Notes: generated by a model not told the origin, from the letters alone. A stretch of 64,000 bases of DNA from Acidimicrobiia bacterium (GCA_963663955.1 OY760694.1:3215251-3279250); one strand, 5' to 3'; shown: positions 27,178-59,528, numbered from the stretch's first letter. A program made the numbers and translations.

Positions 27178-27736
27178 CTAACGCTCCTTCGTCTGCTTGT
27201 AGCGACCGCCGAGCCGGTTTGCCGGAACTTAAGGGTCAGGTTCCAGTTCGCCCGATCACAGTGACATGTTACGTCCCGAACCGTTCTGCGTGGTTGATAT
27301 ATCCGACTTGCCATCGATTCGCGGCACCCTAGCCTCACGGCTCCCGTCACTCGGTAGAGGTGTTCGACCGTCGAGGACGCGGCCGGCCACATTGTGCGGG
27401 CGAACCCCGACGCTGGCGGCAGTGCGTTTCCCCCGGTACACGAGCAGAAACCGAGGCCGCCTACCATCGTGAACAGAACCAGCTGGGGCACACCCCAGCC
27501 GAGGCAACTGGACTCAATCAAACCACTCTCCGGCAAACTTCAACCCTCGCCATCAACCCGGTAGGGTTTATCTGGGGTTCTGACCGTGGTATCGTCTGTG
27601 CTTGTTCCGATGGTGCTAACACAGCGCAAGGTGCTACTCCTCTCCATATCTTCTACTCTTCGCCTAGCGGTAGCTGTGCCTTCGGTAACTGGCCTACCTA
27701 AGGATTGCTGTTAGGAAACGCTGCGGAGGTTGTCCC

Positions 27737-28819
27737 ATGAGAATCAAACGCTTCGAGATTAGTGCCTTTAGGACATTCGACCATCTCACGTTGGGCGGGT
27801 TACGTCGAGTTAACCTCATCGCAGGACAGAACAACGTTGGAAAGACGGCCCTGCTCGAAGCGTTGTGGCAGTTCTCGGGGCCCAATCAACCTGATATCGG
27901 TCTACGGCTTGATCAGTTCCGAGGAATCCATTGGATCGAGGAAGATTACCTGTTTGCCAATTTGTTTCATGGTCGTGATACATCCAAGCCTATAGAACTG
28001 AGAGCCCATGGAGATGCGTCCGTGACTCCGCGTGTTCTAAGGATCGAAACAAGGACTCGAACAACGTCTCGGACTCCCTTAAACGGAAACGGTGCCTCCG
28101 AGGCAATCATGCCAACCCTCGTAGATAGGCCGCATGAGTTAGTCCTTACGTACGAGGATGGATCGGCAGAATATGAATCCCGCGGATGGTTCGAACCCAG
28201 CCGTACACCTGCCGGGGTCCAGAACTCCTTTGAGACACAGAGACATCAGATTCCAGGTGGGCTGGTCGCCGCGTATTTCAGTCCGAGCCACCGCAATCCC
28301 TCGCAGGAAGATGCTGATCGGCTTGGGCGCCTTCAAGTAAGGGACGCCGATGCAATGGTCGTTGACGCCCTCAGGCCCTTCGAACCACAACTGCAACGGC
28401 TGGTGACCGTATCTGTCAGTGGAATACCCGTAATCCACGCGGATCTGGGACAGAACCGTCTCATTCCGATGGGTCTCCTGGGCGACGGTATGCAACGCTT
28501 GCTTTCCCTGACTCTCGCCTTTGACGTCGCGTCAGGGGGAATGATTCTGGTCGACGAGATCGAGAACGGGATCCACCACTCCAAACTAGACTACTTGTGG
28601 CGAGCCATATCGGTCTTTTCAATGAGGTTCGACGTTCAGGTATTCGCCACCACCCACAGCGCCGAATGTGTAAGTGCCGCGCATGAAGCTTTTGAGCATG
28701 AAGACCACTACGACTTTCGTCTCATCCGCCTGGATCGGCTCAACGGGGCAACCGTGGCCAAGTCATTCGACCGGTCTACTCTGGGCACCGCCATAGAGGC
28801 GGACTTCGAGGTGCGCTAG
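27737..28819 (+). CDS. ABC-like ATPase of a two-gene ATPase/TOPRIM module (copy a)
   Basis: Contains MRIKRFEISAFRTFDHLTLGGLRRVNLIAGQNNVGKTALLEAL (Walker A), ILVDEIENGIHHS (Walker B) and FATTHSAEC. GGAGG lies 7 nt upstream of the ATG. Confidence 0.75.
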   Translation: MRIKRFEISAFRTFDHLTLGGLRRVNLIAGQNNVGKTALLEALWQFSGPNQPDIGLRLDQFRGIHWIEEDYLFANLFHGRDTSKPIELRAHGDASVTPRVLRIETRTRTTSRTPLNGNGASEAIMPTLVDRPHELVLTYEDGSAEYESRGWFEPSRTPAGVQNSFETQRHQIPGGLVAAYFSPSHRNPSQEDADRLGRLQVRDADAMVVDALRPFEPQLQRLVTVSVSGIPVIHADLGQNRLIPMGLLGDGMQRLLSLTLAFDVASGGMILVDEIENGIHHSKLDYLWRAISVFSMRFDVQVFATTHSAECVSAAHEAFEHEDHYDFRLIRLDRLNGATVAKSFDRSTLGTAIEADFEVR

Positions 28820-29436
28820 TGGTCCGAACTAAACCGGTCAGCATCAAGGAGGCCGGCCTCGTATTGGTTGAGGGCAAGGATGACCAGAAGTTTCTCCACC
28901 GCCTGAGTGATCACATGGAACTCAGGGGACTCCAGATTCTCAGCTATGGAGGGAAGGACACACTTCGAGATTACCTAAGGACCATACGCCGGCTGCCCGG
29001 GTACGAAAGCGTGCAACATCTCGCAATCGTTCGCGACGCGGACGATAATGCTGAGAACGCCTTCCGCAGTGTCCGCAGCGCGCTGATCGACGCGGAATTA
29101 CCGGACCCGCCAAGACCGGATGAAATGGCATCGTTGCCAAAAGTTGGGCTAAAAGTCTCGGTGATGATCATCCCCCCTGGCTTTCAACGGGGCTGTTTGG
29201 AAACCTTGCTTTGGCAGATTATCAAGACCGCCTCATCCGCGAATTGTATAAGCGAGTATATTGATTGTGCTGAGATCCCTGCCAGAGGAACCCGGCGCGA
29301 TAGAGCGATGGTCCACGCTTACATAGCCGCCCAGCACAAGCCGGGCCTCAAGATCGGTGAGGCCTCCCAGGCTGGCTACTTTGACTTGGACCATGCTGCA
29401 CTCCGCCCTGTCAAGACCTTCTTAGCAGAGTGGTAG
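28819..29436 (+). CDS. small TOPRIM-like protein (copy a)
   Basis: The GTG start shares one nucleotide with the ATPase TAG stop (TAGTG). It has the conserved Glu motif LVLVEGKDD and the acidic D-x-D cluster AIVRDADDN, matching the TOPRIM pattern. Confidence 0.6.
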   Translation: MVRTKPVSIKEAGLVLVEGKDDQKFLHRLSDHMELRGLQILSYGGKDTLRDYLRTIRRLPGYESVQHLAIVRDADDNAENAFRSVRSALIDAELPDPPRPDEMASLPKVGLKVSVMIIPPGFQRGCLETLLWQIIKTASSANCISEYIDCAEIPARGTRRDRAMVHAYIAAQHKPGLKIGEASQAGYFDLDHAALRPVKTFLAEW

Positions 29437-29708
29437 CGAACTGACACGGAACATGAGTAGCCGACTTGTATGCAGGCGTTGCCCGGTACACAAATCAGTC
29501 CAGGCCACTCTCCAGTGGACTAGATAGGTGGCGGGAGGTCACTTTATCTCTTCCTCGCGGTCCATCATCCGTTTCGCTACAGGGTCCGCCGTCTCCTACC
29601 TACGATCAATGGCCATTACTCAAACACCCATAATCGCAGGTCAGACGGTGCATACCCACGTCAATCACCCACCCATCAAACTACCCATGAGTAATCGGGG
29701 TTAGTGGA

Positions 29709-35266: not shown

Positions 35267-37432
35267 CTAATAGCGGGTAAAGGAATTGGTGGCGCCGGGG
35301 TTGTGGGACTGGATAGTCATATCCATCCGGTCCCCCACGTCAAGGTTATCCCCGAAAGAGGCGTAACTCTCCGCATCATCGTCAACGTTGAAGTGGTCGC
35401 TACGGTCGTATTCGGCCACGAATGGTCCGTCGCTTTCGGATGCGATCACCAAGAGATTGCGGCCCCTATCGTGAATACGAACGGTCAGGGAAGTAAGGGC
35501 TCGATCCGTTGGCGCTTTCCTTACCCAGTAATGCAGCAATGGATCATCCGCGTCGGACAGCACCGACCGATCCTCGGTAAAGGCCGAGATGGACTCGATA
35601 CCCGGTTGGTCATGATCGCGGTAGTAGCGCAATACCGCTTCTCCTCGACGATTCGTGACCTTGCGGTAACTGGCCTGGGCCATTTGCGGGTCGTTGGGAT
35701 CCGTGTCCAAACCATTCTCGTCGTCAGACACGAAGTGGATCGTCTCCCCCCTAACCGGATCACCGTACTGGTTCAACAAGGTGGCGGTCACGGTATGGCG
35801 CCCGCCGCGACCGGAAGAGGACGCTTCGCGATAATTGACGGGCTGTTCCAGAACCAGAGCGGAAGGTTCCGCATCTTCGTCACTCCACACCAGCCGAATG
35901 CTGTCGTCGGCGAGGCTGTCCCCCTCCCCATCAACCACGTCCAACCCTGCCGTGTCCAAGACCGCCAAGACGAGAAGGCCCTCGTCCCCGTCATCTGCCG
36001 AAGAGGGGCGATTAACACGATAGAAAAGCTCGACACGGCCGGAGGGGTCGGTGACATAATCCCATGTGCGTCGACTTATCAGCCGACCTTCCACCGTTTC
36101 CTCTCTACGGATGGTGATCTCTACCCCTTCCTCAGTCACCCGATCACCATCCTCATCCACCAACTGGAAGGTAAAATCGACCCGACGACCGAAGGGCGCC
36201 TTCTCAGCCGCAGGATGCAAGCTGTGGGTAGCCTCTATGGCAGCCGCCGGTTTGGTGGCTATCCACTCCAGTTTCGCATAGCTGGTGGTGTCCTCGTCGA
36301 AGTCGTTGCGTAGCCTCCCGGTCCATACCCACAGTATCGTGTCACCGTCCACCGGAAGGTCGTAAACCAGGTTGCCGTCCTCGTCCGTCGTTTCATCGCC
36401 GTTGTCGATTTCGCACAGAACATCCCCGGCTAGCGCGGTCAGTTCATCCTCGTCACAATCGCCGTTGGACTCGAAAGCGTCCGCATCGGGCGGGGCATAG
36501 AACAGGTCAACGGAAGCATCCGTAACCGGTCGGTGCGAACGGTCACGTACCGATACTACGAACTCCTCTGTTGCTCCCTCGAAGCCGACATTGCTCTCTG
36601 CCTGAGCCGTGAGTCCAGCGGGCCGAGCATTGGTGTGCGCAAGCATCCGGGTAACAAACAGCGCCATCTGGGATCTGGTTACATCCCGATCAGGATGGAA
36701 TCGGTCGTCCGCAGCGCCTTTGGTGATCCCCATTTCGTACAGCGCACGCACATCTTGGTAATAGGACTGGGGCAAGTCGCCGATATCGTCAAAGACTTCA
36801 TCATCGGGATTCACGTCCTCGATGTCCACTCCACCCACACCTACCGGCGCCATGGTAAGGAACCGGGCCAGAAACTTGGCCATCTGACGCCTGGTTACCA
36901 ATCCATCCGGATCGTAGGTTGTCGGGGTCTTACCGTTGGTCACCCCAATCTCGGCAAGCTGGTTTATGGCCTCCTGAAAGGAGACCGCGTAGTTATCTAT
37001 GTCTTGGAAGCCCTGGTCCGAGGGTGCGGGTAATTCGATCCCGGCCGGTTCAGCCGCCCGGATCAGGAATAGCGCCATCTGACCTCGAGTGATCCCGTCC
37101 TTCGGTGAGAAGTACCCGGTGGATGTACCGATAGTGATCCTGTAGTGAGCGAGACAGTTGACGGCATCCACTGTGTCCTCGGAATAACCGCGCAGGTCTC
37201 TAAAACCAGCGGATTCCACGGCCGGACCCACACACGCCGAATAGCGGGGCAGTTCGTCCGCTTCGCCGTCCCTTGCCTGTACCGGCCCTGGGGGACCTGC
37301 CAGCAAAGCACCGAGCAACACCAAATAAAACAGCAACGCAACGCTGCCACGAAGCCCGACAACAGGAACCATGGACCTCCTCTTCAAGTCTTCCCTAGCT
37401 AGATAGTACGGTTGGATTCGGCGACTAACCAA
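35267..37432 (-). CDS. SLH + Ig-like surface protein (paralogue 3)
   Basis: Contains YSACVGPAVESAGFRDL...VNCLAHYRI..., HTNARPAG and a C-terminal YDRSDHF. The likely start is the ATG at 37372 (MVPVVGLRG...). Confidence 0.7.
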   Translation of the reverse strand: MVSRRIQPYYLAREDLKRRSMVPVVGLRGSVALLFYLVLLGALLAGPPGPVQARDGEADELPRYSACVGPAVESAGFRDLRGYSEDTVDAVNCLAHYRITIGTSTGYFSPKDGITRGQMALFLIRAAEPAGIELPAPSDQGFQDIDNYAVSFQEAINQLAEIGVTNGKTPTTYDPDGLVTRRQMAKFLARFLTMAPVGVGGVDIEDVNPDDEVFDDIGDLPQSYYQDVRALYEMGITKGAADDRFHPDRDVTRSQMALFVTRMLAHTNARPAGLTAQAESNVGFEGATEEFVVSVRDRSHRPVTDASVDLFYAPPDADAFESNGDCDEDELTALAGDVLCEIDNGDETTDEDGNLVYDLPVDGDTILWVWTGRLRNDFDEDTTSYAKLEWIATKPAAAIEATHSLHPAAEKAPFGRRVDFTFQLVDEDGDRVTEEGVEITIRREETVEGRLISRRTWDYVTDPSGRVELFYRVNRPSSADDGDEGLLVLAVLDTAGLDVVDGEGDSLADDSIRLVWSDEDAEPSALVLEQPVNYREASSSGRGGRHTVTATLLNQYGDPVRGETIHFVSDDENGLDTDPNDPQMAQASYRKVTNRRGEAVLRYYRDHDQPGIESISAFTEDRSVLSDADDPLLHYWVRKAPTDRALTSLTVRIHDRGRNLLVIASESDGPFVAEYDRSDHFNVDDDAESYASFGDNLDVGDRMDMTIQSHNPGATNSFTRY

Positions 37433-37728
37433 ATAATCCGCCGTAGCAGGTTCCCGAACTGCAACAGGTGATCCGGAAAGATATCACCAATGCCTGAAGG
37501 GGGTGGTACGCGTCCCATCCTTGCCGAATCCAAGATCGAGTGTTGCCAGGCCCACAAAACTGAAGCGTTCCGCCCAACCGTACCCATCGGAGTCATGCCA
37601 CAGATCCGACTTGTAAGTGCAATGTTCGAGTCAGCAGGCTTGTCGAGTCCGCCGTTGTCCCTGGTCAGGAGCTTACCCGTGGCTGCGCTTCGCTTCGACA
37701 GGCCTCACTCATGAGGAATCGGGGCTAA

Positions 37729-38687
37729 GAGCGTCCGCGGGTAGGTGGAAATCCACCAGTTGAGGGGTTGTCTCGGGTTTCATACCGAGTGCAACACAAA
37801 TCCCCCAACTGGTGGAGGTATCATTATGCGCGCACTCGACCCCGAAGTAGCAAACGCGGTGTGGAAAGCCACAAAGGGTCTGTTACCCGCCCGGGAGGAC
37901 AACCATCCCCTGGGCTGTCACAATCCCCGTAAACCGGACCGTGTCTGCTTCCAGGGGATACTGATCCGGTTGGTGACCGGCTGCTTGTGGGAAACAGCCG
38001 AACAACTCTTGAACAAAGAGGTGTCGGACACGACTCTGCGGGCCCGACGCGATGAATGGACGAAAGCAGGCGTCTTCGAGAACCTCGAAGCAGAAGCCCT
38101 AGCCGCCTACGACCGTGTGATCGGGTTGGACCTATCCGAGGTCTCGGTCGACGGTAGCCAACACAAAGCGCCCTCCGGGGGGGAAGGAACCGGGAAAAAC
38201 CCCTGCGACCGGGCCGAATCCGGCCCGAAATGGTCCCTGGCCACAGACCGCAACGGCATACCGATCGGTTGGGCCACAAACGGCGCCAACCGTCACGACA
38301 GCATCCTATTCCAGCCCACCCTCGAAGCTGTCGACCGGCGGGGATTGCTCCCCGACATAGAAACCCTCCACCTAGACCGAGGCTACGACAGCAAAACCGT
38401 GCGCGCCCTCTGCGACGCCGCCGGCATAACCGACGTCATATGCGCCAAGAAAAAACCACGAGGCCAAACCGGCAACACCAAAACACCCGCACCCCTCGGT
38501 ATGCGCTGGACCGTCGAACGAACCAACTCATGGCTCACCAACTACGGGCAACTCCGCCGCAACACCGACCGAAACACCCACCACCGACACGCCCAACTCA
38601 ACCTAGCCATCACCCTCATCATCACCATCAAACTCATCAAATGGCGAGACCGCTGGAACCTCAACTAACCCCTACCCGCGGACGCTC
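37729..38687 (+). mobile_element. IS5-family insertion sequence, copy 2 (959 bp), inverted relative to copy 1
   Basis: It has the same 17-bp terminal inverted repeats and is flanked by TAA on both sides. Confidence 0.8.
37745..38668 (+). CDS. IS5-family DDE transposase
   Basis: A 307-aa ORF that differs at 4 residues from 15486-16409. Confidence 0.85.
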   Translation: MEIHQLRGCLGFHTECNTNPPTGGGIIMRALDPEVANAVWKATKGLLPAREDNHPLGCHNPRKPDRVCFQGILIRLVTGCLWETAEQLLNKEVSDTTLRARRDEWTKAGVFENLEAEALAAYDRVIGLDLSEVSVDGSQHKAPSGGEGTGKNPCDRAESGPKWSLATDRNGIPIGWATNGANRHDSILFQPTLEAVDRRGLLPDIETLHLDRGYDSKTVRALCDAAGITDVICAKKKPRGQTGNTKTPAPLGMRWTVERTNSWLTNYGQLRRNTDRNTHHRHAQLNLAITLIITIKLIKWRDRWNLN

Positions 38688-38789
38688 TAAGTGAACCTAA
38701 ACTCGACGAATAATTACGCAAAGACGCAAAGATACGAATAGACAAATAAATACGCAACAAACTTCTCCGGCTGGCGGTATGGTGCTTCT

Positions 38790-39557
38790 ATGGTTTCTCC
38801 TGCGGGCAATCCGTTCTCGCCGACGTTCGGTACCACCCCTCCATTCTTGGCGGGACGGGAAGAGGTGTTATCAAGATTCGACGAAGCCGTAAACGCCGGC
38901 CCATTACATCCCGACTACACATTGCTCATCACCGGAGACCGCGGTACCGGCAAGACTGCCCTCCTGAACGTGCTCGAAGATAGGGTCGCCGATTACGGTT
39001 GGATGACAATAACGGCAAGCGCCTCATCGGAGCCCCTACCGACACGGATTGTCGGCGAGGCCGGGCGCTGCTTGGAACGTCTGGAAAGCGGTCGACGACG
39101 CCCCAAGATCAGATCAATAAGTGCGATGGGGGTCGGGATCCAACTCGGTCACGACCCTGAAGGCCCATTATCGGTGCCCAGCCTGCTTTCGACCCTGGAA
39201 CAGCTTGGAGCGGCGTTGTCCAAGGAGGGTACCGGCCTGCTCCTTACGGTCGATGAGTTACACGACGTTACCCGCCGCGACGTACGAGATGTTGCCGCTG
39301 CTATTCAGATCGTGACCCGTCGCCGCCTTAGGCCGATCGCGTTCGCTGCTGCAGCGCTGCCTCTCATTGAGCACACCCATCTCGCGGACGCCCAAATGAC
39401 CTTTCTGCAACGCTGCGCCCGAGCGTCCCTGGGCCCGCTGGACCCGGTGCATACACGCCAGGCACTCCACAAACCGATTGTTCGCTCCAGCGCTGCCATC
39501 GACGATTCAGGCGGTCATGAAAAGCTTCTCCCTCGCCAGACGAAGCGACTTGGGTGA
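38790..39557 (+). pseudogene. 3'-truncated P-loop ATPase (ORC/Cdc6-STAND-like ATP-binding protein)
   Basis: Contains NPFSPTFGTTPPFLAGREEVLSRFDEAV...LLITGDRGTGKTALL and LLTVDELHD. The family-like sequence ends near 39505, after which the frame reads into antisense of a dGTPase fragment. Confidence 0.5.
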
Positions 39558-39672
39558 CACCTGTCAGCCGCCGGAACTCCGGTGAATACAACACCCGATC
39601 ACGATCCCGCTGGAACGGACTCCGTGGATCGCCTACGCTTGCGGGGCGGCGTCGAGCTTCTCGCTCGCTCAC
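39505..39672 (-). pseudogene. dGTPase (HD-domain dNTP triphosphohydrolase) N-terminal fragment
   Basis: DPRSPFQRDRDRVLYSPEFRRLTGVTQV matches the conserved N-terminus of Dgt-like proteins. The HD domain itself is missing. Confidence 0.5.
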
Positions 39673-39899
39673 TGATGGACTACACGAATACCGTCAAGCG
39701 CATATCGCAGCCTGCCTTCCCGGACGAGGCGACCGATCGCTACCGCTAGGCCCACATCGTCGATATCGGAACCCTCATCTTTCATGTCATAAAAGAGCGC
39801 GAGTACATCGTCGATCGGTGGCTCTCCCTCCTTTTCATGTCTCCGAAAGAACTCCAACACCTCTTCCTTTCTGGACCGGACACTCATGGCTCCTGGCAT
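39669..39899 (-). CDS. small hypothetical protein upstream of and overlapping the dGTPase fragment
   Basis: A 76-aa ORF whose stop overlaps the GTG of the next ORF (GTGA). No motif was recognised. Confidence 0.3.
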   Translation of the reverse strand: MPGAMSVRSRKEEVLEFFRRHEKEGEPPIDDVLALFYDMKDEGSDIDDVGLAVAIGRLVREGRLRYALDGIRVVHQ

Positions 39900-40615
39900 G
39901 TCAGCTCCCTTCTTGGAATTACCCTAGTGAAACTATCAGCAGGGTGGGACACCCGCTTCGCCACGAAGGAAAGGGTGCAGAACTTTCTCGTCTGCCGAGC
40001 GTCTCTCAGCCGGTGTCGTATTCGTTGGTAGAGCGGGTGGTCAGGATTATCGACCTTTCTGGTAGCGGCGGGAGCCCAACTTAGAAGAGGCCTCCGCAGC
40101 TCCCGTCCTTAGGCCAGGAGAATCAGTGTCCTGAAGCATGTGACACACCGAGCTAGGAAGGTCCCTGATGGGCGAGCGCCACCAAGCTACGCTTCCTCGG
40201 GTTCCAGATCAACAAGGCAAAGGTGATGCGACCAGAGAAAATGTAGATGAGGGGGGCTATCACCGTCACACCCGAACGTCCAACCCGAGGAGAATTACTA
40301 CGTCTACTTCTCGGGGTTACCACCGATCAAATCTTCAGCACCCTCCCCAACTACCGCGAAATCACGGATCAGAAGACACTCGAGGCAGGGAACCCAGAAC
40401 CCCGTCCTTCGCTCTATAGTACAAGGACGAGGATGGGAGCGACCGATCTGGTTAGTGAGTCACGGGACGCCAGAAGCTCTGCCAAGACGCCGCGAACACA
40501 TCCGACGCAGAACCACCACCTCGCACACTGAGCGAACGACGGAATAGGACCACTCAAGCCTCATGAGTTGAAGACGTACCCAAACGGCTTCGCTCAGCGC
40601 AACGGAGGTTGCCTG

Positions 40616-41698
40616 ATGAAGATCATAGACTTCGAGATCAAGAACTTCAGGACGTTTAAGAGAATACGTTTGGACGGTCTTCGAAGCGTGAACCTCGTCG
40701 CCGGACAGAACAATGTAGGCAAGACTGCCCTACTTGAAGCATTGTGGCAGTTCTCGGGTGCCGATCAGCCGGACGTCGGTCTACGAATCGATCAGTTCAG
40801 GGGGATCCAGTGGATAGACATGGATCATGTGTTCCGCGATATGTTCCACGGCCATGACGCTTCCCAACCCATCGAACTCAGAGCTACATCAGGTCACGAC
40901 TCGACTCAGTACGTTCTGCGAATCGAAACGCTAGTCCGAGAAACAGTGCGCACCCCCGTGGGTGGAAACGGCTCGGCCGGTGGAGGGCTACCGCCTATCG
41001 TGGATAGCCCCCATGAGATCGTTCTGACGTACACCGACAGCAGCGATCGCTACGTATCCCGTGGATGGTTCGTGTCCCGTATGGCAGGACCCGGGGTGGT
41101 TCAGAACGATTTCGAAACCAGCCGGGAGCGGGTCCCTGGTCGACCCTCCGGCGTCTACTTCAGTCCGAGTCACCGCAGCGCCCCGCCCGAAGACGCAGAC
41201 AAGCTGGGACGAGTCCAGGTTAAGGGAATCGAGACGATGGTAGTTGATGCCCTTAGGAGTTTCGAGCCTCGTTTGACGCGACTCGTAACCGTATCCATCA
41301 ACGGATTACCCGTTATTCATGCCGATCTGGGGCTGGGCCGTCTCATGCCGATGGGCTTGCTTGGCGACGGTATGAACCGCGTACTCTCCTTAACGTTAGC
41401 CTTCGAGACCGCGTCCGGAGGAATGCTTCTCATTGACGAGATCGAGAACGGAATCCACCACTCCAAGCTGAAGGACTTTTGGCGCGCAATCTCAGACTTC
41501 TCGGAAAGGTTTAACGTCCAGGTGTTTGCCACCACCCACAGTGCCGAATGCGTCCGTGCCGCGCATGATGCGTTCGAGGCCGACCGCCACAATTTCCGCT
41601 TCATCCGACTCGATCGTGTCAACGGCAAAACCGTAGCGAAGTCGTTCGAAAGAAACACCCTATCTACTGCCATCGAAGCAGACTTCGAAATCCGGTAG
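40616..41698 (+). CDS. ABC-like ATPase of the ATPase/TOPRIM module (copy b)
   Basis: Starts MKIIDFEIKNFRTFKRIRLDGLRSVNLVAGQNNVGKTALLEAL and is collinear with copy a throughout. GGAGG lies 7 nt upstream of the ATG at 40616. The track ORF begins at the TTG at 40568. Confidence 0.75.
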   Translation: MKIIDFEIKNFRTFKRIRLDGLRSVNLVAGQNNVGKTALLEALWQFSGADQPDVGLRIDQFRGIQWIDMDHVFRDMFHGHDASQPIELRATSGHDSTQYVLRIETLVRETVRTPVGGNGSAGGGLPPIVDSPHEIVLTYTDSSDRYVSRGWFVSRMAGPGVVQNDFETSRERVPGRPSGVYFSPSHRSAPPEDADKLGRVQVKGIETMVVDALRSFEPRLTRLVTVSINGLPVIHADLGLGRLMPMGLLGDGMNRVLSLTLAFETASGGMLLIDEIENGIHHSKLKDFWRAISDFSERFNVQVFATTHSAECVRAAHDAFEADRHNFRFIRLDRVNGKTVAKSFERNTLSTAIEADFEIR

Positions 41699-42030
41699 TG
41701 TCCCGACACCAGCCCATTCGGATAGCCGAAACCGTACTATTGCTGGTTGAAGGCAAGGATGATGAAGGGTTCCTTAGATGCCTCTGTGAGCATATCGGCC
41801 TAAATGGGGTAGATATCCTCATATACGAAGGTAAAACCCACCTGCGAAGCTACCTTGAAGTCCTCCCTCTCCTACCAGGCTACGAGAGGGTAGAGCGGAT
41901 CGGCATCATTCGCGATGCCGACGAGGACGCTACCGGTGCCTTCATGAGTGTCCGCAGTTCGCTGATTAACGCAGGACTAACGGCACCTCTACAACTGAAC
42001 CGTACCACGGCAGCGCAACAACACTGCTAG
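41698..42030 (+). pseudogene. TOPRIM-like partner (copy b), truncated to 110 aa
   Basis: It shows the same TAGTG coupling. LLLVEGKDD and IIRDADEDA are present, but the C-terminal half seen in copy a is replaced by a toxin-antitoxin cassette. Confidence 0.5.
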
Positions 42031-42041
42031 GGTCGACGCAT

Positions 42042-42257
42042 GTGAGGTATACAGGCCACGCACGTATCCAATGGCAAAGAGGGATGTCACAACAGAGGAC
42101 GTTGAAACAGCCCTACAACGTCAGGCAGGCACCGACGCTGGTCAACCGGGAACCATCTGGATCAACGGAATAACCGAAGGAGGCCGCCGGTTGCGAGTGT
42201 GTAGCTGCCAATGACAAAAAGCTCGTTATTACTGTTGGATGGCCAGATGGAGAATGA
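42042..42257 (+). pseudogene. DUF4258-like toxin gene with at least 2 frameshifts
   Basis: Pieces in three frames read YTGHARIQ / MAKRDVTTEDVETALQ...GTIWINGITEGGRRLRV / AANDKKLVITVGWP. Confidence 0.4.
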
Positions 42258-42263
42258 TCTCGA

Positions 42264-42638
42264 ATGTACTTCTCATACGATCTTGAAGCAAACGCCCTCT
42301 ACATTGGGATGACCCCCACACCGAGAGCGGCAAAAACCCGCTTCGTCGACAGCGGCACCCTCGTAGACCTCGACACCGACGGAACTGTTATCGGTATCGA
42401 GATCATCAACCCGCTGCGGCAATGGCCCCTTGATGAGATTTGCAACCAATACGGGCTGGCCCCGGAGCAGCGGAAACTGGCCGAAATGTTTGTGTCTCCC
42501 AAGGACGAGACTGCGGACTCCGCAGCCTTGGCCGTCGCCTTCGAGATGCTGGCGACCGTAACACCCACAGTCGCTTGGCACGGGGACCTCCCGGTATGTG
42601 ATGCTCTCGCCGCCCGGCACGCTACGGCGGCGGGCTAA
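42264..42638 (+). CDS. DUF2283-like protein (putative antitoxin partner)
   Basis: MYFSYDLEANALYIGMT.....VDLDTDGTVIGIEIIN matches the DUF2283 pattern. It has a longer C-terminal tail than usual. Confidence 0.5.
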   Translation: MYFSYDLEANALYIGMTPTPRAAKTRFVDSGTLVDLDTDGTVIGIEIINPLRQWPLDEICNQYGLAPEQRKLAEMFVSPKDETADSAALAVAFEMLATVTPTVAWHGDLPVCDALAARHATAAG

Positions 42639-43143
42639 CCCCCACCACCCAAGTCAAGTTAACCATTGTTTGTCCCTTTGCTACGGCCACTCCAGGTTCG
42701 GGTGCTCTCGTGCCGGAGTGTGGTACTAGACGTGGGACGCCACCACTCGGCTGCCGCCTGCCACCGCTGGTTACCTGGTTGTTTGCCGGCTCTTCGGATT
42801 TCAGTGGGGAGTGACCGCGGGGAGTAGGTCCCAGTTGGGTTTCCCCGCATACAGGTGAGCCGTAGGCAGCTATTCGCGACGGGGACCTCAAACCCCAAGA
42901 AGCCCGCCAGGAGTACATATCCTCCTATGCCTTGGCCTTGTGGTCACTCGGTGCCGCAGGCAAAGAGGTCGTCAAGTCCGGCCCACGCTGGCAGCGCATC
43001 CTCGATGGCGGTCTCGCAAGTATCAACTGGCTGAAAACCAACCCGGACTGGCAGGGAATCTGCATGGCCGAGAATGAAGTGGGCACGCGCATGCCAACAC
43101 GGCGCGCCACAGCTGACTACATCAAATGGAATATCGGCCTAAC

Positions 43144-43650
43144 TGTTGGCGATCAGCGAAATTCCCCAGAGTCGATCATTGAAATTCCCCACCCTGGGTG
43201 TGTTGGTGAGTCTAGCTGGCGCCTCCTTTCGGTCGGTGTTTTCTGGCTTGGGCGTGGTAGACGCGTAGCCAGTAGCTGTCTCCCGAAATGGTGAACACGA
43301 CGCTTCGGTGGAGTAACCGGTCCAACATGGCAGCAGCGATGGTGCTGTCGGAGAAGATGTCTCCCCAGGCGGCGACGCTACGGTTGCGGTCAGGATTGTC
43401 GATCCTTTCTGGTAGCGGCGGGAGATGACCTGGAACAGGGAGGCGGCGTCCTCGGCGGGTATTGGCAGATATCCCAATTCATCGACTATAAGCACTTCGT
43501 GACCGGAGAAGAGGTGCATGGTTGGGACCCGGCGTCCTTCGAGGGCGGCTGTTGGGGCCGCGGACTGGGAGGTCAGCGGCGGTAGTGTAGTAGACCCTGT
43601 GACCGCCATCGACCGCAGCGGCGACCCAGGATGTAGTCGGTCGGTACGGC
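43144..43650 (-). mobile_element. istB: IS21-family remnant: 5'-truncated, frameshifted istB plus terminal repeats
   Basis: Three frames give AAAVDGGHRVYYTTAADL / HEVLIVDELGYLPIPAEDAASLFQVISRRYQKGSTILTA / NRSVAAWGDIFSDSTIAAAMLDRLLHRSVVFTISGDSYWLR. The terminal direct repeats GGGGAATTTC x2 lie at 43160-43200. Confidence 0.6.
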
Positions 43651-43652
43651 CG

Positions 43653-44282
43653 TCATTCGAACAGTCGCTGTATCCAGTCTACAAGGGTCCGCGCAGGCAC
43701 CGACATGGTGCTGAGCTGGGAGTGCTGCGTTGCAGCGCTTAGCAGCCCACCCGGAGACCGTAGGGCTGCTGTCCATGCATAAACCTGCGCTTTGACCGTG
43801 TGTGAATCGCTGAACTTCTTGTGTTCTGCCGGAATCGCCTGGATATACTCTCTCGCTAGTGGCCAGATCGGATCATCATCCGGAATCAATGTGGCTACGA
43901 AGTCTTCCAATTCGCCGGAGGACTGATTGTCCGGCATGAGCCACACACCTACTTTGGGGGCGCCATCAAGAACGGTGCCTCCATGTTCAGGTTCGGACGG
44001 TATGGGAGAACCCAACACCGGAGCCTTACTGACCTCCTGCGCGATATCACCCCACTTCTCGAACCGGTCACTATTCGCATCGGCCATGATCCCGAGTGCC
44101 ATCCGCCCTTCGACGACCAACTGTTGTCGAATCTCTACTCTCAGCCCTGACCACCCGCCACAGGCGCGTATATCGAAGCTGGGCAGACCGGGGTAGGCCT
44201 TGCAGATATGTCGGACAATTCGCTCGTCACTTGACCCTTCGACCAAGAGAAGCCTTGCCAACTGTGTCCCCGTCCTTCGCAT
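43653..44282 (-). CDS. small TOPRIM-like protein (copy c, divergent)
   Basis: Has LLLVEGSSDERIV and GIMADANSD. At 209 aa it is similar in length to copy a. Confidence 0.5.
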   Translation of the reverse strand: MRRTGTQLARLLLVEGSSDERIVRHICKAYPGLPSFDIRACGGWSGLRVEIRQQLVVEGRMALGIMADANSDRFEKWGDIAQEVSKAPVLGSPIPSEPEHGGTVLDGAPKVGVWLMPDNQSSGELEDFVATLIPDDDPIWPLAREYIQAIPAEHKKFSDSHTVKAQVYAWTAALRSPGGLLSAATQHSQLSTMSVPARTLVDWIQRLFE

Positions 44283-44431
44283 TCAGCCGCGCCTGACGGG
44301 AGGGAGAGACCGGGAAGTATCTGCCAGCCTGGACAGGTCTATCCCCAACCGGGTGCATCCGGCACGCTCTACAGTTGCGGTCCTGACCCGGGTGTTAAGA
44401 AATCGATACAGTGCCATGGGAGGGCTCAGGG

Positions 44432-45553
44432 TTAGCGGACTTCGATCAGTCGCTCGGTTGCAACGGTTAGATCTCGCTCGGAATACTCGACCGCCATTAG
44501 ATGCCCGTCCCGTTGGGACAGCCGTACCAGGTGACCTTCGACCTCGGCTGATTCGGCAGCTGCATTCGCGAAACCACTTATGCAATCGAAGCTGTGGGTG
44601 GTAGCGACCACCTGAACGTTATTCTTGTGAGCAACGCGGAGTACCATCCGCCAGAAATCCTGCTGGATTGCATGGTGGAGTCCATTCTCGGCTTCGTCGA
44701 TAAGCAAGAACCCATCCGTACAATTAGCGAGAGCAGCCGCGACGCCGAACATGCGAAGGGCACCATCTCCTAGGCTTCTTAGCGGAACCCGTTCGTCATG
44801 ATCGAACTTCAAGAGCGGCCGTACCCCATCCCTAACATGCTGACGTCCAGGCAGCCTCCATCTGGCGCTATTGTCGCCGACCATAGCTATACGTGACACG
44901 GGTTTTCCCGCTACCAGGCTGAGAGCTTCGGAGACGTAAGGTTCATCAGGGGTTAGGGCGACGTTGTCCCACAAGCGCGCTATCTCGGAATTGGTCAGGA
45001 CACCTGGCCCGATTGATTCGCACTTATGTCGCGCCGGCAAGTCACTACCGTGTCGCGCGGATCTCTTCGATACCCCAGGTACCTGTGGAAACACAGCTAC
45101 CACGTTTCCTCTGTCGGCGACCTCCACCTCAATTAGCCGGACCGGTTCCTCTACGAATGGATCAGGGTCAAAAAGCTCAAAACCGTCCGCGGAGAAAGCA
45201 GGGGCTCGAATAGTAACTGCATTCGAACCGTCGACCGGTCCAATAAAGATGGTTGCCTCGTCTGACACTATCCTGTTGTAGAAGAGGGCTGACCAATCCT
45301 CCACGACCCTCCGAGGTGTGTCAGGATCACCATCTTGAGTAACGATCTCATCCGAGTGGCTCAGCACAGACTGGAGCGAAGCTCGCCGTCCGCGCGACGC
45401 GAACACCCGAATCGCATCCAACACTGTGGTCTTCCCGATGCTGTTCCGCCCGGCCAACAGCGTCACCCGTCCCAGACGAGGAATAGTCAAGTCGCGCAGC
45501 CCGCGGAACCCGCGAATCGTAAGGTCGGGTAGAATTAGGCGACCATCAGACAT
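44432..45553 (-). CDS. ABC-like ATPase of the ATPase/TOPRIM module (copy c, divergent)
   Basis: Contains MSDGRLILPDLTIRGFRGLRDLTIPRLGRVTLLAGRNSIGKTTVLDAI, LLIDEAENGLHH and ATTHSFDC, with a C-terminal ..IEVR like copies a and b. The ATG at 45553 is preceded by GAAGGGAG. The 92-aa upstream extension in the track ORF is implausible. Confidence 0.7.
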   Translation of the reverse strand: MSDGRLILPDLTIRGFRGLRDLTIPRLGRVTLLAGRNSIGKTTVLDAIRVFASRGRRASLQSVLSHSDEIVTQDGDPDTPRRVVEDWSALFYNRIVSDEATIFIGPVDGSNAVTIRAPAFSADGFELFDPDPFVEEPVRLIEVEVADRGNVVAVFPQVPGVSKRSARHGSDLPARHKCESIGPGVLTNSEIARLWDNVALTPDEPYVSEALSLVAGKPVSRIAMVGDNSARWRLPGRQHVRDGVRPLLKFDHDERVPLRSLGDGALRMFGVAAALANCTDGFLLIDEAENGLHHAIQQDFWRMVLRVAHKNNVQVVATTHSFDCISGFANAAAESAEVEGHLVRLSQRDGHLMAVEYSERDLTVATERLIEVR

Positions 45554-46014
45554 CGACTGGGCTCCCTTCTCCAGTAGCTCTAGTGGCGCTGCCGACCTTA
45601 TCTCCCCGGTAAGCCCTGTGACCATAGCTACTGATACGAGGATAGCGTGGCGCGAATCCCGACAGTACTCGGCAACACCGGATAATCTCAACGGGAGTCG
45701 CCGACACATCAACCTGCTCTGATTTGGAACTCTTGGGTGAAACTTCACCGCCCCTGGCCTCGGGTCCTTCGGCAGTTTCGCCATCGCAACCCTCTTATCT
45801 GCCGTGTATCCGCTTCTCTTCGATACCAAACTTCGTCTTGCGCCGAGCCAGGCCGACGAGTCGGTCCGGAAATAGATGCTTCCAAGCGCGTGGGTTCTGT
45901 CTATCCCGCTTACCAGTCGTAGCCACGGCCATCCCCACGCTCAAAGCTTCACACGACAACAGCGTCCTCGGGGAGAAGCACTGCGAGGACGGAGCGCTAC
46001 AGCCTCCAGACCTG

Positions 46015-46566
46015 TTATGTCAGCGAGTTGACTGGATTGGGTTCGGATTGACGGATCAGCTCGTCTCGGAGGGCGATGGCAAGCACGTCGAGAACCTTGC
46101 TTCGGTGCACCCCGTGCTCGTAAGCGGAGCGGTTGATCCTTGCCAGAAACTCGCGGTCCGGCTTGAAGTCGCGGTTGGCGAACTCGAAGCAGAACTCTTG
46201 AAGATCATAGAGATCACTGCCCTCAACTCGATCTTTGAGTTCACGAGACGCGACCCTCGCCCACCCGTCAGCGCCCATTTCTACCGCGATCCGCTCGCCT
46301 AGTTCGGAAAGTCGAAGCGGCCTATATTCTTGAACGGTAACCGGCTGTAGCTGACGCAGTATGTGCCCAATGTCTGCGCGGATGTCTCGAATGTCCTGCT
46401 GTATCTCTCCCAGCACAAGCCGAAGACCATCCCGGTCGGCATCAACTTCACCCGTCCACCGGATGAACTTGACCAAGTACCTGCCTCCGAGGAGTAGCGC
46501 CGTCACGACGCCGGCAATGGCTGCGTAAGTGGAGGGGTTCTCCCACATGACAATCTCTCCTCCCAA
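46015..46566 (-). CDS. single-pass membrane protein, paralogue of 34318-34815
   Basis: It has a TM helix (YAAIAGVVTALLLGG) and ends with a block that includes the identical VLDVLAIALRDEL. Confidence 0.55.
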   Translation of the reverse strand: MGGEIVMWENPSTYAAIAGVVTALLLGGRYLVKFIRWTGEVDADRDGLRLVLGEIQQDIRDIRADIGHILRQLQPVTVQEYRPLRLSELGERIAVEMGADGWARVASRELKDRVEGSDLYDLQEFCFEFANRDFKPDREFLARINRSAYEHGVHRSKVLDVLAIALRDELIRQSEPNPVNSLT

Positions 46567-46602
46567 CCACCAAGGTACTTCTCATAGAGCTTTACTTCCA
46601 GG

Positions 46603-46835
46603 TGCCACTACCCCACAGCGCTGAATGCGTCCCGGGCCGCGCGTGATCACTTCGAGGCCGACCGCTACAACTTCCGCTTCATCCGGCTCGATCGTGTCAA
46701 CGGCACAACCGTAGCGAAGCCGTTCGGCAGAACCACGCTAGCTACTGCCATCGAAGCAGGCTTCAAAATCCGGTAGTGTCCCTACACCAGCCCTTTCGGA
46801 TAGCCGAAACCGTACTTTGCTGGTTAACACGCAAG
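46603..46835 (+). pseudogene. decayed 3' end of an a/b-type ATPase plus the first ~60 nt of its TOPRIM partner
   Basis: It aligns at DNA level with 41535-41760. A 1-nt insertion creates an in-frame TGA. The junction ATCCGGTAGTG is retained. Confidence 0.6.
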
Positions 46836-46882
46836 GGTGGAATTGCCCCGCTTCGGTGGTCATTCACCAATTGCGGAGTGAG

Positions 46883-47053
46883 TTACCGCTCCCTTCGCAC
46901 GCCCTTAAACGGCCCGCCCGACTTCTTCGTTGCCATGAACCGCCCTGTCGAGGCGTCGCGCTTCGTCCACTGACCGGTCTTCGGGTTCCGAACTTGGCTT
47001 CGACCCGAGACTGCCCCATATCGACCACCGCCCCTCGCTCCATTCTTAGCCAT
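46883..47053 (-). CDS. 56-aa basic hypothetical protein
   Basis: Below the track cut-off. It reads MAKNGARGGGRYGAVSGRSQVRNPKTGQWTKRDASTGRFMATKKSGGPFKGVRRER. I recall similar small proteins in other bacteria but cannot name a family. Confidence 0.4.
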   Translation of the reverse strand: MAKNGARGGGRYGAVSGRSQVRNPKTGQWTKRDASTGRFMATKKSGGPFKGVRRER

Positions 47054-47298
47054 GGTGATACACCCTGTTATCGGCTCGCTGTCGACACCACTCTAAACGA
47101 ATTGTTCCCCCATTCTTGGTTCTGGTGACATCGCGTATTCATACGGATCACAATCTAGAACACTCGATTCCCTGGCCCCAGGCGCTGGACTCAAAGCTAC
47201 GTTGCGTCCGCTGAAGACGTGACAGACTATGTGACAAGGCGAGTCAAAGTGATAGCCCAGAGGCTGCCGATGGCCAGCAGAAGGCTGATCCTCCAGGG

Positions 47299-47386
47299 AC
47301 GAAATCGGTAGTGTCCCCTACACCAGCCTGTTCGAATCCCCGAAACCGCACTCCTGCTGGTTTAGGCAAGGATGACGAAGGGTTGG
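47299..47386 (+). pseudogene. second decayed ATPase/TOPRIM junction fragment
   Basis: The segment ...gaaatcggtagtgtcccctacaccagcc...ctgctggtttaggcaaggatgacgaaggg aligns with 41688-41775. The catalytic GAA (Glu) codon context is destroyed. Confidence 0.5.
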
Positions 47387-47526
47387 TGGTAAGGGTCGAG
47401 GTTAGACCCATCAATGGTCTACTGACCTGTGTGTGACTGCACGAATCTACACCCTGATAGTTAGTCTTGAAGGTTCTTCACCTAGAATGAGTTGAAACGG
47501 TCCACCTAAAGCACTCGGAGGCTGTA

Positions 47527-48793
47527 GTGCTCCTTGGATTTCAGGTCACTAATCACCGCTCGTTTCTTGATCGGGTGGATTTCTCCATGATAGCGGTGGA
47601 CGAAGATCGGGAAGCCGCGCGCAGTTACGAGCGGCTCTCCGAGCAAGTGTTGACGGTCGCAGGGATCTACGGTCCCAACGCTTCGGGAAAGTCCAACCTG
47701 CTCGATGGGATTGCTTGGCTGTCTACCGCCGTCCGAACATCCTTCCGCGGTTGGGACGAGTTCATCCCGCGAGACCCTCACCTGATGGGTGACGGCCCTT
47801 CGAAACCGTCCGTCTTCGACATGTCTCTGGTGGTCGGCGGCGTCGAGTACGAGTACCGGCTTGTGGTTGACGACTCAGCCGTGCTGTACGAGAGACTCCA
47901 CGGCTATCCAGAGGGCCGGCGGAGACGGTTCTACGAGCGCGACGGGGACGACTTGCGGTTTGCCCGCGGCCTGGGTGGAGCCCGCGGGGTGCTAAGTCTC
48001 CTGACACCAACCGTACTCGTGCTTTCCGCCGCCACGCGTTTGCGCGTACCCGTTGTACACGACGTTGGACGTGCCATCTCGGGAATCGGCATGCTCGGGG
48101 TTCGTTCATGGATGCCGTCCTTCTTCAGCACAACGCGACGCTTGTTCACAGGTCAGGGCACGCATCCTCAGGTGGCGCTGTTCGCAGATAAGGCCACGGA
48201 CCGGGATGTTGCTTTGGAGCTACTGCGATGGGCCGATCCCGGAATCGTGGATGTGGACTTTGTCGAACAAGACACGAGCGAAGGCCAACCTGGTAAACCT
48301 CACGCTCGGACAGCCCGCCCTTACTGGCAGTTCGTTCGCCGAATAGCCGATGAAGACTACTTCATCGGCTTCGGTGACGAATCAGCCGGAACGCGGGACC
48401 TGGTTCCGCCTGCTAGGACCGGCGCTCAGCGCTCTTCGGAGGGGCCAGGTTCTGTTGTTCGATGAGATCGACGCGAGTCTTCACCCGCGGCTCTCCAGCC
48501 AACTGATCCAACTCTTCCAGGATCCGGAGGCGAATCCCCATAATGCTCAGCTCGTATTCACAACTCACGATACGTCTCTTCTGAACGTTTTGAACCGCGA
48601 CGAGGTTTGGTTGACGGAAAAGAGCTTGGACGGGGTCTCGCAGTTGATCGCTCTTGCAGAGTACGGGGGTGAGAGGGTCAGGAAGTCGCTGAATCTCGAG
48701 AGGGCGTATCTTCAGGGTAGGTTCGGAGCTATCCCGGAAGCCGACCAGATCACGATCCGCAACGCTCTCGGTCTTGCCCTTGGCGGATCGTGA
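47527..48793 (+). pseudogene. AAA_21-like ATPase (Abi/RloA-type) with one frameshift
   Basis: The N-terminal part reads MLLGFQVTNHRSF...IYGPNASGKSNLLDGI. The C-terminal part, in another frame, reads WFRLLGPALSALRRGQVLLFDEIDASLHPRL...FTTHDTSLL...DEVWLTEK. The shift maps to the GGG run at 48395-48397. Confidence 0.6.
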
Positions 48794-49185
48794 TTGCAAA
48801 GTCGCGACAACGTGGGCGAAGGAGGCGAAGACCACGGATAAGGGCGTAGATGGAGAGACTTACATGCCTTTGCGGGAGACAGCGACCCGACGGGCTCGGC
48901 GACTCGCTAGGAAGCACGCGCAGCTAGGAACCGGTTCCCGCATGACAACCCATCCTCGGAAATGTATCTCCTTCTCGAGACAATTGATCCTGGGGACTAG
49001 GCGTAAGCACAGCCTTCGACACGCCTGCGGCAATCGACCGATGGGCCGCCGAGCCGCCCACGAATCTCAGAGCCGGTCCTGTGGACCCGATTCTGGACCG
49101 GTGCCGGCCCACCGCTGAAAGGCCCAAACGAACAGCGTCTTGGGAAGAAGCACTGTGATGACGAGCGCCGGGATTCGATGTGAGC

Positions 49186-49221
49186 GCTCGGGCCCCTGGG
49201 TTGTACCCCAGGGGCCCGAGC
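49186..49221 (-). terminator. 15-bp perfect hairpin downstream of paralogue 4
   Basis: GCTCGGGCCCCTGGG-ttgtac-CCCAGGGGCCCGAGC lies 40 nt past the stop at 49261. There is no clear U-tract. Confidence 0.5.
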
Positions 49222-49260
49222 TTCGTCGTGGGTTGGCTGATGCTTCGCGAACCCGGTGGA

Positions 49261-58335: not shown

Positions 58336-58881
58336 GTGTTGATGGAGCAGATAATCATCGGCCTAGTCGGGCTCATCCTTGGCCTAGTCGGGCTCATCCT
58401 TACCGTGATACTGTTCCTGGAACGATCCCGGCGCGCCGACAACAAGGCGATACGGCACGAAATCGCCGCGGCGCGAGACGAACTCAAAGCCGAAATCGCC
58501 GCGGCGCGAAAAGACGCGAAGGCAGACAACGCAACGTTACGGCGAGAACTGAAGGAAGAAATGGCCCTCAGGTCCGCCCACACCGACCAACGCATCGACA
58601 ATTTCACCGCCGCCATACAAGAAGAAATGGCCCTCAGATCCGCCCACACCGACCGGCAAATCGAAACCCTCACCGCCGCCATACAAGAAGAAATGGCCCT
58701 CAGATCCGCCCACACCGACCAACGCATCGACAATTTCACCGCCGCCATACAAGAAGAGATGGCCCTCAGATCCGCCTCCACCGACCAACAAATCAAAAAC
58801 CTCACTGACGCCGTGTCCAAACTCGTCGAAACCGTCGGACAGGTAAAGGGCCGAACCGAAGTCCTCACCGCCGCCAACTAA
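58336..58881 (+). CDS. membrane-anchored coiled-coil repeat protein
   Basis: The N-terminal TM region contains a duplicated GLVGLIL. Four 22-aa repeats EEMALRSAHTDQRIDNFTAAIQ follow. Confidence 0.6.
   Translation: MLMEQIIIGLVGLILGLVGLILTVILFLERSRRADNKAIRHEIAAARDELKAEIAAARKDAKADNATLRRELKEEMALRSAHTDQRIDNFTAAIQEEMALRSAHTDRQIETLTAAIQEEMALRSAHTDQRIDNFTAAIQEEMALRSASTDQQIKNLTDAVSKLVETVGQVKGRTEVLTAAN
58555..58818 (+). repeat. 4 x 66-bp in-frame tandem repeat
   Basis: The units start at 58555, 58621, 58687 and 58753. Units 1 and 3 encode identical peptides. Confidence 0.85.
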
Positions 58882-59325
58882 ACCCGGCGTCGGCCGGCGA
58901 CCCAGAGAAGAACTCCGAAGGGTTCGAGCCGAACTCGTCGCGGTCGAACTGGAGTTGGCTAGTGACCAGAAAGCCACTGTCGATGCTCCCGTCGGCCACG
59001 TCGGCGAGTTCCTCCTCGTCCTCTTACAACTCGCTTGGGGGCCTTGTCGATCTCTGTAGCAGGTGGCGATGATCGTATGCGGTCGACCGCCAGCAATGTG
59101 GCGTGCTTTTCAATGGTGTGCTCACCGGTACCGAGGCACCCTTACAGCCTGCTCCTAGCCCCGCCACGATGCGGGAGCCGTGACTTGATCTGGACATGGC
59201 GGGTATCCGGACCTTCCAATGACATGTCCTCGAAACCCTCGGGTACCAGCGAATCAACAACAAAACGGCTTGTCGCGACATGCGCAGCCAGACAAGCCCC
59301 ACCGAGAACCCTCGGCAAGTCGTTA

Positions 59326-59528
59326 GCCCGATTATTCATGGATGGAGGCTTGGAGGATGAGCGGAGTAGACCATATTCGCGCCCTTACCAGGCAATACAG
59401 CTATCGATGTTTCCCTCCCTCTCCGGTGTGGAGATTCACCTGCAAGGGTGAACGATAGGTTTCTCCTGATACTCGTGTTGAACTGGCGTTACATGGCGCG
59501 GTGTGTGGGAAACCTGAATAATCAGGGC
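59326..59528 (+). mobile_element. ~203-bp MITE (type 2), copy 1, TA-flanked
   Basis: The terminal inverted repeats are GCCCGATTATTCATGG ... CCTGAATAATCAGGGC, with TA on both sides. Similarity to 63225-63428 is high along the full length. Confidence 0.6.

Follow-up and report, generated by a model that had tools for sequence, protein, structure and literature searches.

Organization of the locus

The window analysed here was a 64,000-nucleotide (nt) stretch, with a G+C content of about 59%, of the chromosome of a sponge-associated Acidimicrobiia bacterium (GCA_963663955.1 OY760694.1:3215251-3279250), an organism also found in metagenomes and genome runs from sponges. The region belongs to a hypervariable accessory island carrying surface-protein and defence genes. 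Three two-gene modules, designated a, b and c, were found in the window, each consisting of an ATPase gene and a gene for a smaller DUF3226 partner (T_a, T_b and T_c), together with two short relics, d and e (Table 1).

Table 1. Modules, relics and adjoining features, in window coordinates (aa, amino acids; ORF, open reading frame)
Feature	Coordinates	Strand	Size	Remarks
Strain-variable cassette carrying pair a	27300..29593		~2.3 kb	from strain comparison
ATPase a	27737..28819	+	360 aa	ABC/Rad50-SMC-head-like, AbiLi/PDC-M38A-like; intact
T_a, partner of a	28819..29436	+	205 aa	DUF3226, TOPRIM-like; GTG start overlapping the ATPase TAG (TAGTG); intact
ATPase b	40616..41698	+	360 aa	ORF intact and all motifs present in the window strain; orphaned
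T_b, partner of b	41698..42030	+	110 aa	DUF3226; truncated, N-terminal half only
DUF2283 gene	42264..42638	+	124 aa	Pfam 4.5e-9; at the expected site of the T_b 3' half; 95-99% conserved with L085
IstB (IS21) fragment between b and c	43139..43609	-		Pfam IstB_IS21 4.3e-11, profile positions 138-193 only
T_c, partner of c	43653..44282	-	209 aa	DUF3226, TOPRIM-like; intact
Spacer	44283..44431	-	149 nt	separates ATPase c from its partner
ATPase c	44432..45553	-	373 aa	PDC-M38A subfamily, distinct from a/b; intact
Relic d	46603..46825	+		~57 final codons of a b-type ATPase, TAGTG, ~16 first DUF3226 codons
Relic e	47300..47390 (about)	+		ATPase stop, TAGTG, DUF3226 start with in-frame stop (LLLV*GKDDEG)
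Other-type AAA_21 ATPase split by frameshift	47527..48793	+	312 + 147 aa ORFs	N part 6.2e-15, C part 1.4e-12, in different frames

An alignment with 27 homologues showed that the Walker A motif (G30-K36), a GDG signature-like motif (G249/G251), the Walker B motif (D273-E274) and the H-loop (H307) were invariant in ATPases a, b and c. All three proteins ended in ...EVR/EIR, a feature of the family, and matched the family hidden Markov model with E-values of 1e-155, 2e-155 and 8e-74, respectively. These E-values and the conserved motifs place the three modules far beyond chance. The stop codon of the ATPase gene overlapped the start codon of its partner as TAGTG in a (cgcTAGTGgtc) and b (cggTAGTGtcc), and also in the homologous loci L001 and L002. 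The latter two carry a 106-aa gene that overlaps the ATPase start, but the possibility of a three-gene system was rejected, as there was no counterpart upstream of a or b. The interval 39000-49500 was reproduced without differences in three independent runs, and its structure is therefore not an assembly artefact.

An earlier interpretation made from the nucleotide sequence without database searches, referred to below as the sequence-only reading, had described three ATPase/TOPRIM modules within 18 kb. ORF calls returned the same coordinates for all of the modules, and the description held, with every ATPase matching AAA_21/AAA_15 and every partner DUF3226. The reading was also right that b is collinear with a (1403 nt, 67%) and keeps the TAGTG overlap, but it overlooked relics d and e and the fact that the partner of b is only half a gene. 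Module c was, as it had stated, much more diverged, with the 149-bp spacer and the ...EVR C-terminus. The claim that c keeps all catalytic motifs applied to the ATPase; its TOPRIM protein has D-A-N instead of D-A-D, which is normal in its subfamily.

Family assignment and predicted structure

The three ATPases matched the Pfam families AAA_21/AAA_15 (AAA_21 in a, E = 1.3e-16) and the partners matched DUF3226 (PF11536; 9.5e-27 for T_a and 1.9e-45, full length, for T_c), with additional matches of T_a and T_b to an OLD-like TOPRIM family that were below threshold. Among the PADLOC profiles, ATPases a (1.2e-54) and b (1.4e-55) matched AbiLi from end to end, ATPase c matched PDC-M38A (1.8e-73), and the partners matched PDC-M38B (T_c at 2.5e-34). 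The AbiLii profile gave a weak and partial match to T_a (9.6e-5, positions 9-101 of 125) and none to T_b or T_c at 0.01. All of the NCBIfam matches were far under the cut-off, so that no curated family in that collection fits. From these profiles, the modules are taken to be two-gene AbiL-like/PDC-M38 systems, relatives of PARIS, and of an already known kind. The proposal of an immunity module in the sequence-only reading agrees with AbiLi, PDC-M38A and PDC-M38B being the best PADLOC profiles and with the presence of Gabija and other ATPase genes in the island.

T_c and ATPase a had no match by sequence among the PDB structures, and fold comparison was therefore used. The AlphaFold2 model of T_a (mean confidence, pLDDT, 95.7) had its best PDB matches in Foldseek with the C-terminal TOPRIM domain of class 2 OLD nucleases (6njx/6njw/6nk8/6njv; E about 2e-4, probability 1.0, TM-score 0.4-0.5, and 0.43-0.47 for 6njx and 6nk8), and it also matched the TOPRIM part of retron Eco2. 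AbiLii has been superimposed on the PDB family 6NJV, the same family that was matched by the T_a model (PMC13064643). The conserved residues E18, R72-D73-A-D75, P119, G125, E128 and K162 are all present in T_a, and the model predicts an OLD-type TOPRIM nuclease fold for the DUF3226 partner. The closest solved structure to the model of ATPase a (pLDDT 86.5) was PtuA (8sux, E = 2e-12), and Rad50, SMC heads, GajA and the Thermus OLD protein were also matched.

Condition of the three modules

The partner gene of module b has 110 codons, compared with about 205 in a complete gene, and covers only positions 3-96 of the 208 in the DUF3226 profile. Approximately 103 homologous codons are followed by 7 unrelated codons and a stop, and a tblastn search with the full-length L001 partner matched T_b over residues 1-102 only. 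No remnant of the C-terminal half was found anywhere in the window. Mapped onto the T_a model, the break, at about residue 103, precedes strand β4 and the whole helical half, and the missing parts carry the conserved P119, G125, E128 and K162. The truncation was common to every related strain examined. In L085, a syntenic relative represented by a 397-kb ENA contig, the break point was the same and there was an extra 1-nt deletion, and run X8 had an extra 271-nt deletion at T_b that joined 41946 to 42218.

The ATPase gene of module b was also disrupted in other strains. In L085 and X12 it was cut at 41397 by an IS-like element ending GAATAATCAGGGCTAG, and in X8 and X14 it had an uncompensated 1-nt deletion at 41335. 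The truncated partner, the sharing of the truncation among strains and the independent disruptions of the ATPase gene lead us to regard module b as a relic, in which loss of the 3' half of the nuclease gene appears to predate the divergence of the sampled strains, and whose orphaned ATPase gene appears to be undergoing independent inactivation in the sister strains.

Relic d was 86% identical in nucleotide sequence to b at 41554-41761 (tblastn, 79% over 47 aa) and was absent at the syntenic position in L085. Relic e was detected by a tblastn match at 47321-47386, and in X8 the two relics were fused, with 46764 joined to 47316. They are probably the remains of further copies or of recombination between copies. 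The split AAA_21 ATPase directly 3' of relic e is a case of further decay. The IstB fragment, beside which a complete IS21 element was inserted in L085, is a sign of mobile-element damage around b and c.

Module a presented a different picture. Pair a was found in L091 at 95.4% nucleotide identity with both genes intact, and the ratio of nonsynonymous to synonymous substitution rates (ω) was 0.20 for the ATPase and 0.29 for its partner. The pair was absent, at 85% identity or more, from X8, X12 and X14. In runs X7 and X8, single contigs spanned 22790-27300 and 29593-30252/30362, with approximately 0.8-1.0 kb of other sequence between the two segments. Pair a is therefore described, on comparison of the strains, as an intact strain-variable cassette under purifying selection, and it is probably functional. 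A composite transposon formed by the two inverted IS4/5 copies at 15463-16429 and 37725-38691 was considered as the vehicle of pair a and rejected, since other strains lack the first insertion sequence (IS) but keep the cassette flanks (27300 and 29593), with other sequence linking the two.

ATPase c resembles ATPases a and b only over the N-terminal 45 or so and the C-terminal 120 or so residues, at about 37% identity, and belongs to a subfamily with hundreds of full-length relatives at approximately 50% identity. It was 89% identical to the syntenic orthologue in L085, where the ATPase gene is intact (ω 0.25) and the T_c orthologue is a pseudogene with two nonsense mutations and one frameshift. 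Module c was present at about 90% in X8, X14 and X7; the codon considered as a possible premature stop in T_c of X8 is TGG, not TGA. The TOPRIM motif of T_c consists of E15 and D68-A-N70, not D-A-D, and is considered normal since 65 sequences of the subfamily have D in that column and 57 have N. All of the residues conserved in the subfamily (E15, D68, G112, W114, P117 and E126) are retained.

The distance between the ATPase and partner genes in the clade of c was 149 nt in the window, 153 in L085, 41 in L086 and 68 in L087, and in more distant c-type loci the coupling was tight, with a distance of +3 nt in L089 and an overlap of 1 nt in L090. The long spacer thus appears to be a feature of this clade. 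A structured RNA in the spacer was rejected, the predicted fold being less stable than that of shuffled sequences (z = +2.0). By these comparisons, pair c is an older resident from a different subfamily, intact in the window strain, and is one of two modules, with a, that look functional.

Order of decay

The family is large, with 2890 proteins for the a/b ATPase and 2560 for the c subfamily at E<1e-10 among the scored candidates. Among the GTDB species representatives, which do not include the window organism, the best ATPase match was at 43%. At 80 genome loci, the majority of them in Chloroflexota/Dehalococcoidia, cyanobacteria, Planctomycetota and ANME archaea, the ATPase was almost always single. 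An intact DUF3226 gene of about 200-215 aa followed it in 65 of the 79 evaluable loci, typically at a distance of -4 to +5 nt. In the window, a full-length DUF3226/PDC-M38B gene lies directly downstream of the ATPase gene in a (1-nt overlap) and c (149 nt), but not in b. In one of the genome loci, from Caldilineaceae (L028:11104-12843), the ATPase gene is followed by a 579-aa ORF that matches DUF3226 in its N-terminal part only (profile positions 7-95), an arrangement suggestive of an effector whose C-terminal domain has been exchanged.

An intact ATPase without an intact partner was found at 14 of the 79 loci in this ATPase-anchored genome sample, as compared with an intact partner without an intact ATPase at 2 of the 54 loci, both with the same sequence, in a partner-anchored metagenome sample. 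The contrast (Fisher p = 0.015) gives only a hint that the nuclease gene is lost first and the ATPase persists, because the samples were not alike in source or seeding. Module b, module c in L085, and L088 are further cases in which the partner was lost first. Loss of the TOPRIM gene before that of the ATPase fits a relationship between a toxin (the TOPRIM protein) and its restrainer (the ATPase).

Two readings would go further than this. One holds that regular TOPRIM-first loss marks a true toxin/restrainer pair, with orphan ATPases such as b being kept for some time to neutralise or sense related TOPRIM toxins, so that the paralogous modules of an island would form a cross-talking network and not a set of independent systems, and is considered unlikely. 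The other, which is rather improbable, is that the orphaned ATPase b is kept for a function of its own, either acting in trans on the nuclease of module a or c, to restrain or retarget it, or neutralising incoming homologous TOPRIM toxins as an "antitoxin". The 360-codon ORF of ATPase b is indeed intact, with Walker A, Walker B and the H-loop invariant, at least three samples of the window strain carry it in identical form, and partnerless ATPases are fairly common at 14 of 79 loci. However, two lesions of independent origin have inactivated the gene in three other strains, and cross-binding is not assured between modules whose ATPases are 67% identical and whose partner halves are 53% identical.

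Origin of the modules

The ATPases of a and b are 67% identical in protein sequence and the two modules are collinear over 1403 nt at 67% DNA identity, the partner proteins being 53% identical over their shared half. The match ends at the module edges and there is no homology between the flanks. ATPase b is 78% identical to its homologue in L001, another metagenome contig, as compared with 67% to ATPase a, and in a neighbour-joining tree it joined the homologues from other contigs before ATPase a. Since ATPase b is nearer to the homologues on other contigs, c is in another subfamily and the flanks are unrelated, the modules do not appear to have been duplicated in place, and their clustering is best explained as independent arrival in one hotspot.

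The ATPases diverge most in the insertion that separates Walker A from Walker B (residues 85-185), where a and b are 54% identical with an ω of about 0.25, compared with 78% identity and an ω of about 0.09 in the C-terminal part containing the signature, Walker B and H-loop; these ω values are rough because the synonymous divergence (dS) between a and b is saturated. The insertion in a and b could not be aligned with that of c. In the AlphaFold2 model it consists of six β-strands and one disordered loop, residues 108-132. No region with ω near or above 1 was found along the ATPase in the comparison of a and b, and the ω of the insertion indicates that it is probably under relaxed purifying selection and not positive selection. 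The long-term ω was 0.13-0.28 for all gene pairs.

The sequence-only reading had expected the variation between Walker A and Walker B, as was observed, and had offered as a counter-indication that the variable region might be an unstructured linker without sign of selection; the insertion is predicted to be mostly folded and β-rich, yet there is no signal of positive selection. The same reading ascribed the cluster to duplication in place followed by diversification of sensing specificity, the copies being kept because each senses different phages. The presence of three modules in 18 kb would suit this explanation, as multi-copy clustering is unusual (a second ATPase match within 10 kb occurred at only 2 of the 80 genome loci), as would the divergence of the insertion, its predicted β-rich fold and an average ω below 0.3 for all pairs. 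We nevertheless consider it improbable, because ATPase b groups with homologues from other contigs and not with ATPase a, c stands in a separate subfamily, the flanks of a and b lack homology, no region has an ω near or above 1, the T_c orthologue of L085 is a pseudogene, and b has a truncated nuclease gene and an ATPase gene that is broken in sister strains, and so answers to the non-functional relic that the sequence-only reading had itself named as a refutation.

The interpretation that we favour, with a probability of roughly 0.7, is that the three modules were acquired independently and now stand at different stages of a cycle of gain and decay. Several observations weigh against it, 1) ATPase b is full length and has every catalytic motif in the window strain, with a long-term ω of 0.13-0.16, and may have some residual function, 2) the strain evidence comes from Logan contigs, in which rare variants are dropped and indel errors are possible, although the deletion at 41335 in ATPase b was found in two runs from different hosts despite this risk, 3) the dS between a and b exceeds 1.4, 4) the decay contrast compares two differently sampled sets, pattern-seeded genomes and metagenome scans, 5) the likeness of the T_a fold to the OLD TOPRIM domain is moderate (TM-score 0.4-0.5, E about 2e-4) and 6) an anti-phage activity of DUF3226-type systems is attributed by analogy, PDC-M38 being a computational candidate and the AbiLii match weak.

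If the modules did arrive independently, a striking cluster of apparent paralogues can come from the ordinary turnover of a defence island, in which modules of different lineages enter one hotspot and decay begins with the toxic nuclease half. The window would then offer a natural decay series for a poorly studied ATPase and TOPRIM family, comprising an intact recent cassette, an intact old resident, an orphan ATPase and scraps. Different specificities of a and c are plausible. It is pairs a and c, not b, that are the candidates worth cloning.

Relation to known defence systems and possible mechanism

A review (2026) groups AbiL, PARIS and RloAB as systems that combine an ABC ATPase with a TOPRIM/OLD protein (PMC13064643). 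PARIS behaves like a toxin-antitoxin (TA) system in which AriB is the toxic effector and AriA the sensor and antitoxin; the mechanism of the other members of the group is untested according to the same review (PMC13064643). The modules in the window resemble AbiL of Lactococcus and PDC-M38 in being two-gene operons in which the gene for an ABC/Rad50-like ATPase precedes that for a small TOPRIM/OLD-like protein. They differ from AbiL in that the partners are DUF3226 proteins of about 205 aa with a weak AbiLii match or none, and that the hosts are uncultured sponge symbionts and not lactococcal plasmids.

The split ABC ATPase and TOPRIM effector are also shared with PARIS, the AriA profiles match at 1e-14 to 1e-24, and a TA-like dependency fits the order of decay. 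However, the window ATPases are shorter and have a different insertion, the AriA matches are far weaker than those to AbiLi/PDC-M38A (1e-41 to 1e-73), and the partner is a DUF3226 protein with no DUF4435/AriB match in any of the three modules, so that they are not PARIS systems. Both the ATPase and the TOPRIM folds match the OLD proteins (class 1, P2 Old; class 2/Gabija, GajA), but in these the two domains form one polypeptide and GajA requires the UvrD-like GajB. The window genes are separate and no helicase adjoins a, b or c, and the modules are therefore not Gabija or OLD systems proper. Septu (PtuA/PtuB) and the retron-associated PtuAB provide the closest solved ATPase structure, PtuA (8sux), but their effector is an HNH nuclease and not a TOPRIM protein.

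By analogy with PARIS and AbiL, an oligomer of the ATPase would bind and restrain the TOPRIM nuclease. The ATPase would serve as the infection sensor, probably by means of its variable β-rich insertion. On a phage cue, the nuclease would be released or activated and would then cut nucleic acid, and the infection would be aborted.

The possibility that the modules are not concerned with phage defence, but are TA/addiction cassettes or pairs of an ATPase and a nuclease of the DNA-repair type that are simply carried along in a variable region, might be entertained since a full-text literature search found nothing on DUF3226 or PDC-M38, the neighbourhoods in L089 and L090 are rich in TA genes and the order of decay is TA-like, but it is very improbable given that the modules recur beside Gabija, TIR, GmrSD and PARIS-like genes, that they resemble in profile AbiLi, an experimentally defined abortive-infection gene (PMC13064643), and that TA behaviour and defence are compatible, as in PARIS.

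Neighbouring genes and repeats

A Gabija-like pair was located at 16889-20619, in which the gene for a 599-aa AAA_15/DUF2813/OLD-like TOPRIM protein (GajA-like) overlaps the start of the gene for a 644-aa UvrD-type helicase (GajB-like). In X12 the segment 16916-18363 was missing and the GajA-like gene was truncated. A 475-aa AAA_15/AAA_21 ATPase is encoded on the minus strand at 20986-22413, with no obvious partner, and its orthologue in L086 (78% nucleotide identity) lies 4 kb from a c-type module. A gene for a C5 cytosine DNA methylase (351 aa) overlaps the start of that for a 175-aa HATPase_c_3 protein (59577-61156), and this pair may belong to a further module of the restriction or defence type. 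Upstream of the DUF2283 gene there is a 47-aa ORF (42071-42638 together), which differs by 1-nt and 2-nt indels in L085, and the two genes may form a small TA pair.

Genes for five paralogous SLH/Big_1 surface proteins, each about 700 aa long, are interspersed among the defence genes (22768-24873, 25105-27177, 35267-37432, 49261-51366 and 51528-53828), and a shorter SLH protein is encoded at 13943-14746. The same interleaving of SLH and defence genes was seen in the relatives L085 and L086, and the island may be one of surface variation that is co-located with defence genes. Tandem repeats of 132 nt encoding a PD40 β-propeller (30309-31648) lie inside a gene for a 685-aa protein, and their number varies among strains, as several joints were found there in the contigs of other strains. 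A second tandem array, with a 66-nt period, is situated at 58489-58812 inside overlapping ORFs.

The two inverted IS4/5-family copies are 967 nt in length and 99% identical; the first is absent in X7, X8, X12 and X14, where 15421 is joined to 16425. A repeat of about 119 nt occurs at 20615-20733 and 61104-61222, the copies being 85% complementary, and is highly repeated in these genomes, as indicated by its depth of about 2000x in the X8 Logan contigs. Short repeats with inverted ends (CCCGATTATTCATGG ... CCTGAATAATCAGGGCTAG) were located at 59320-59531, 62778-62840 and 63220-63431 and in L085 at approximately 16922-16945. Their end sequence adjoins the point at which ATPase b is cut in L085, which suggests an active family of miniature inverted-repeat transposable elements (MITE) or IS elements.

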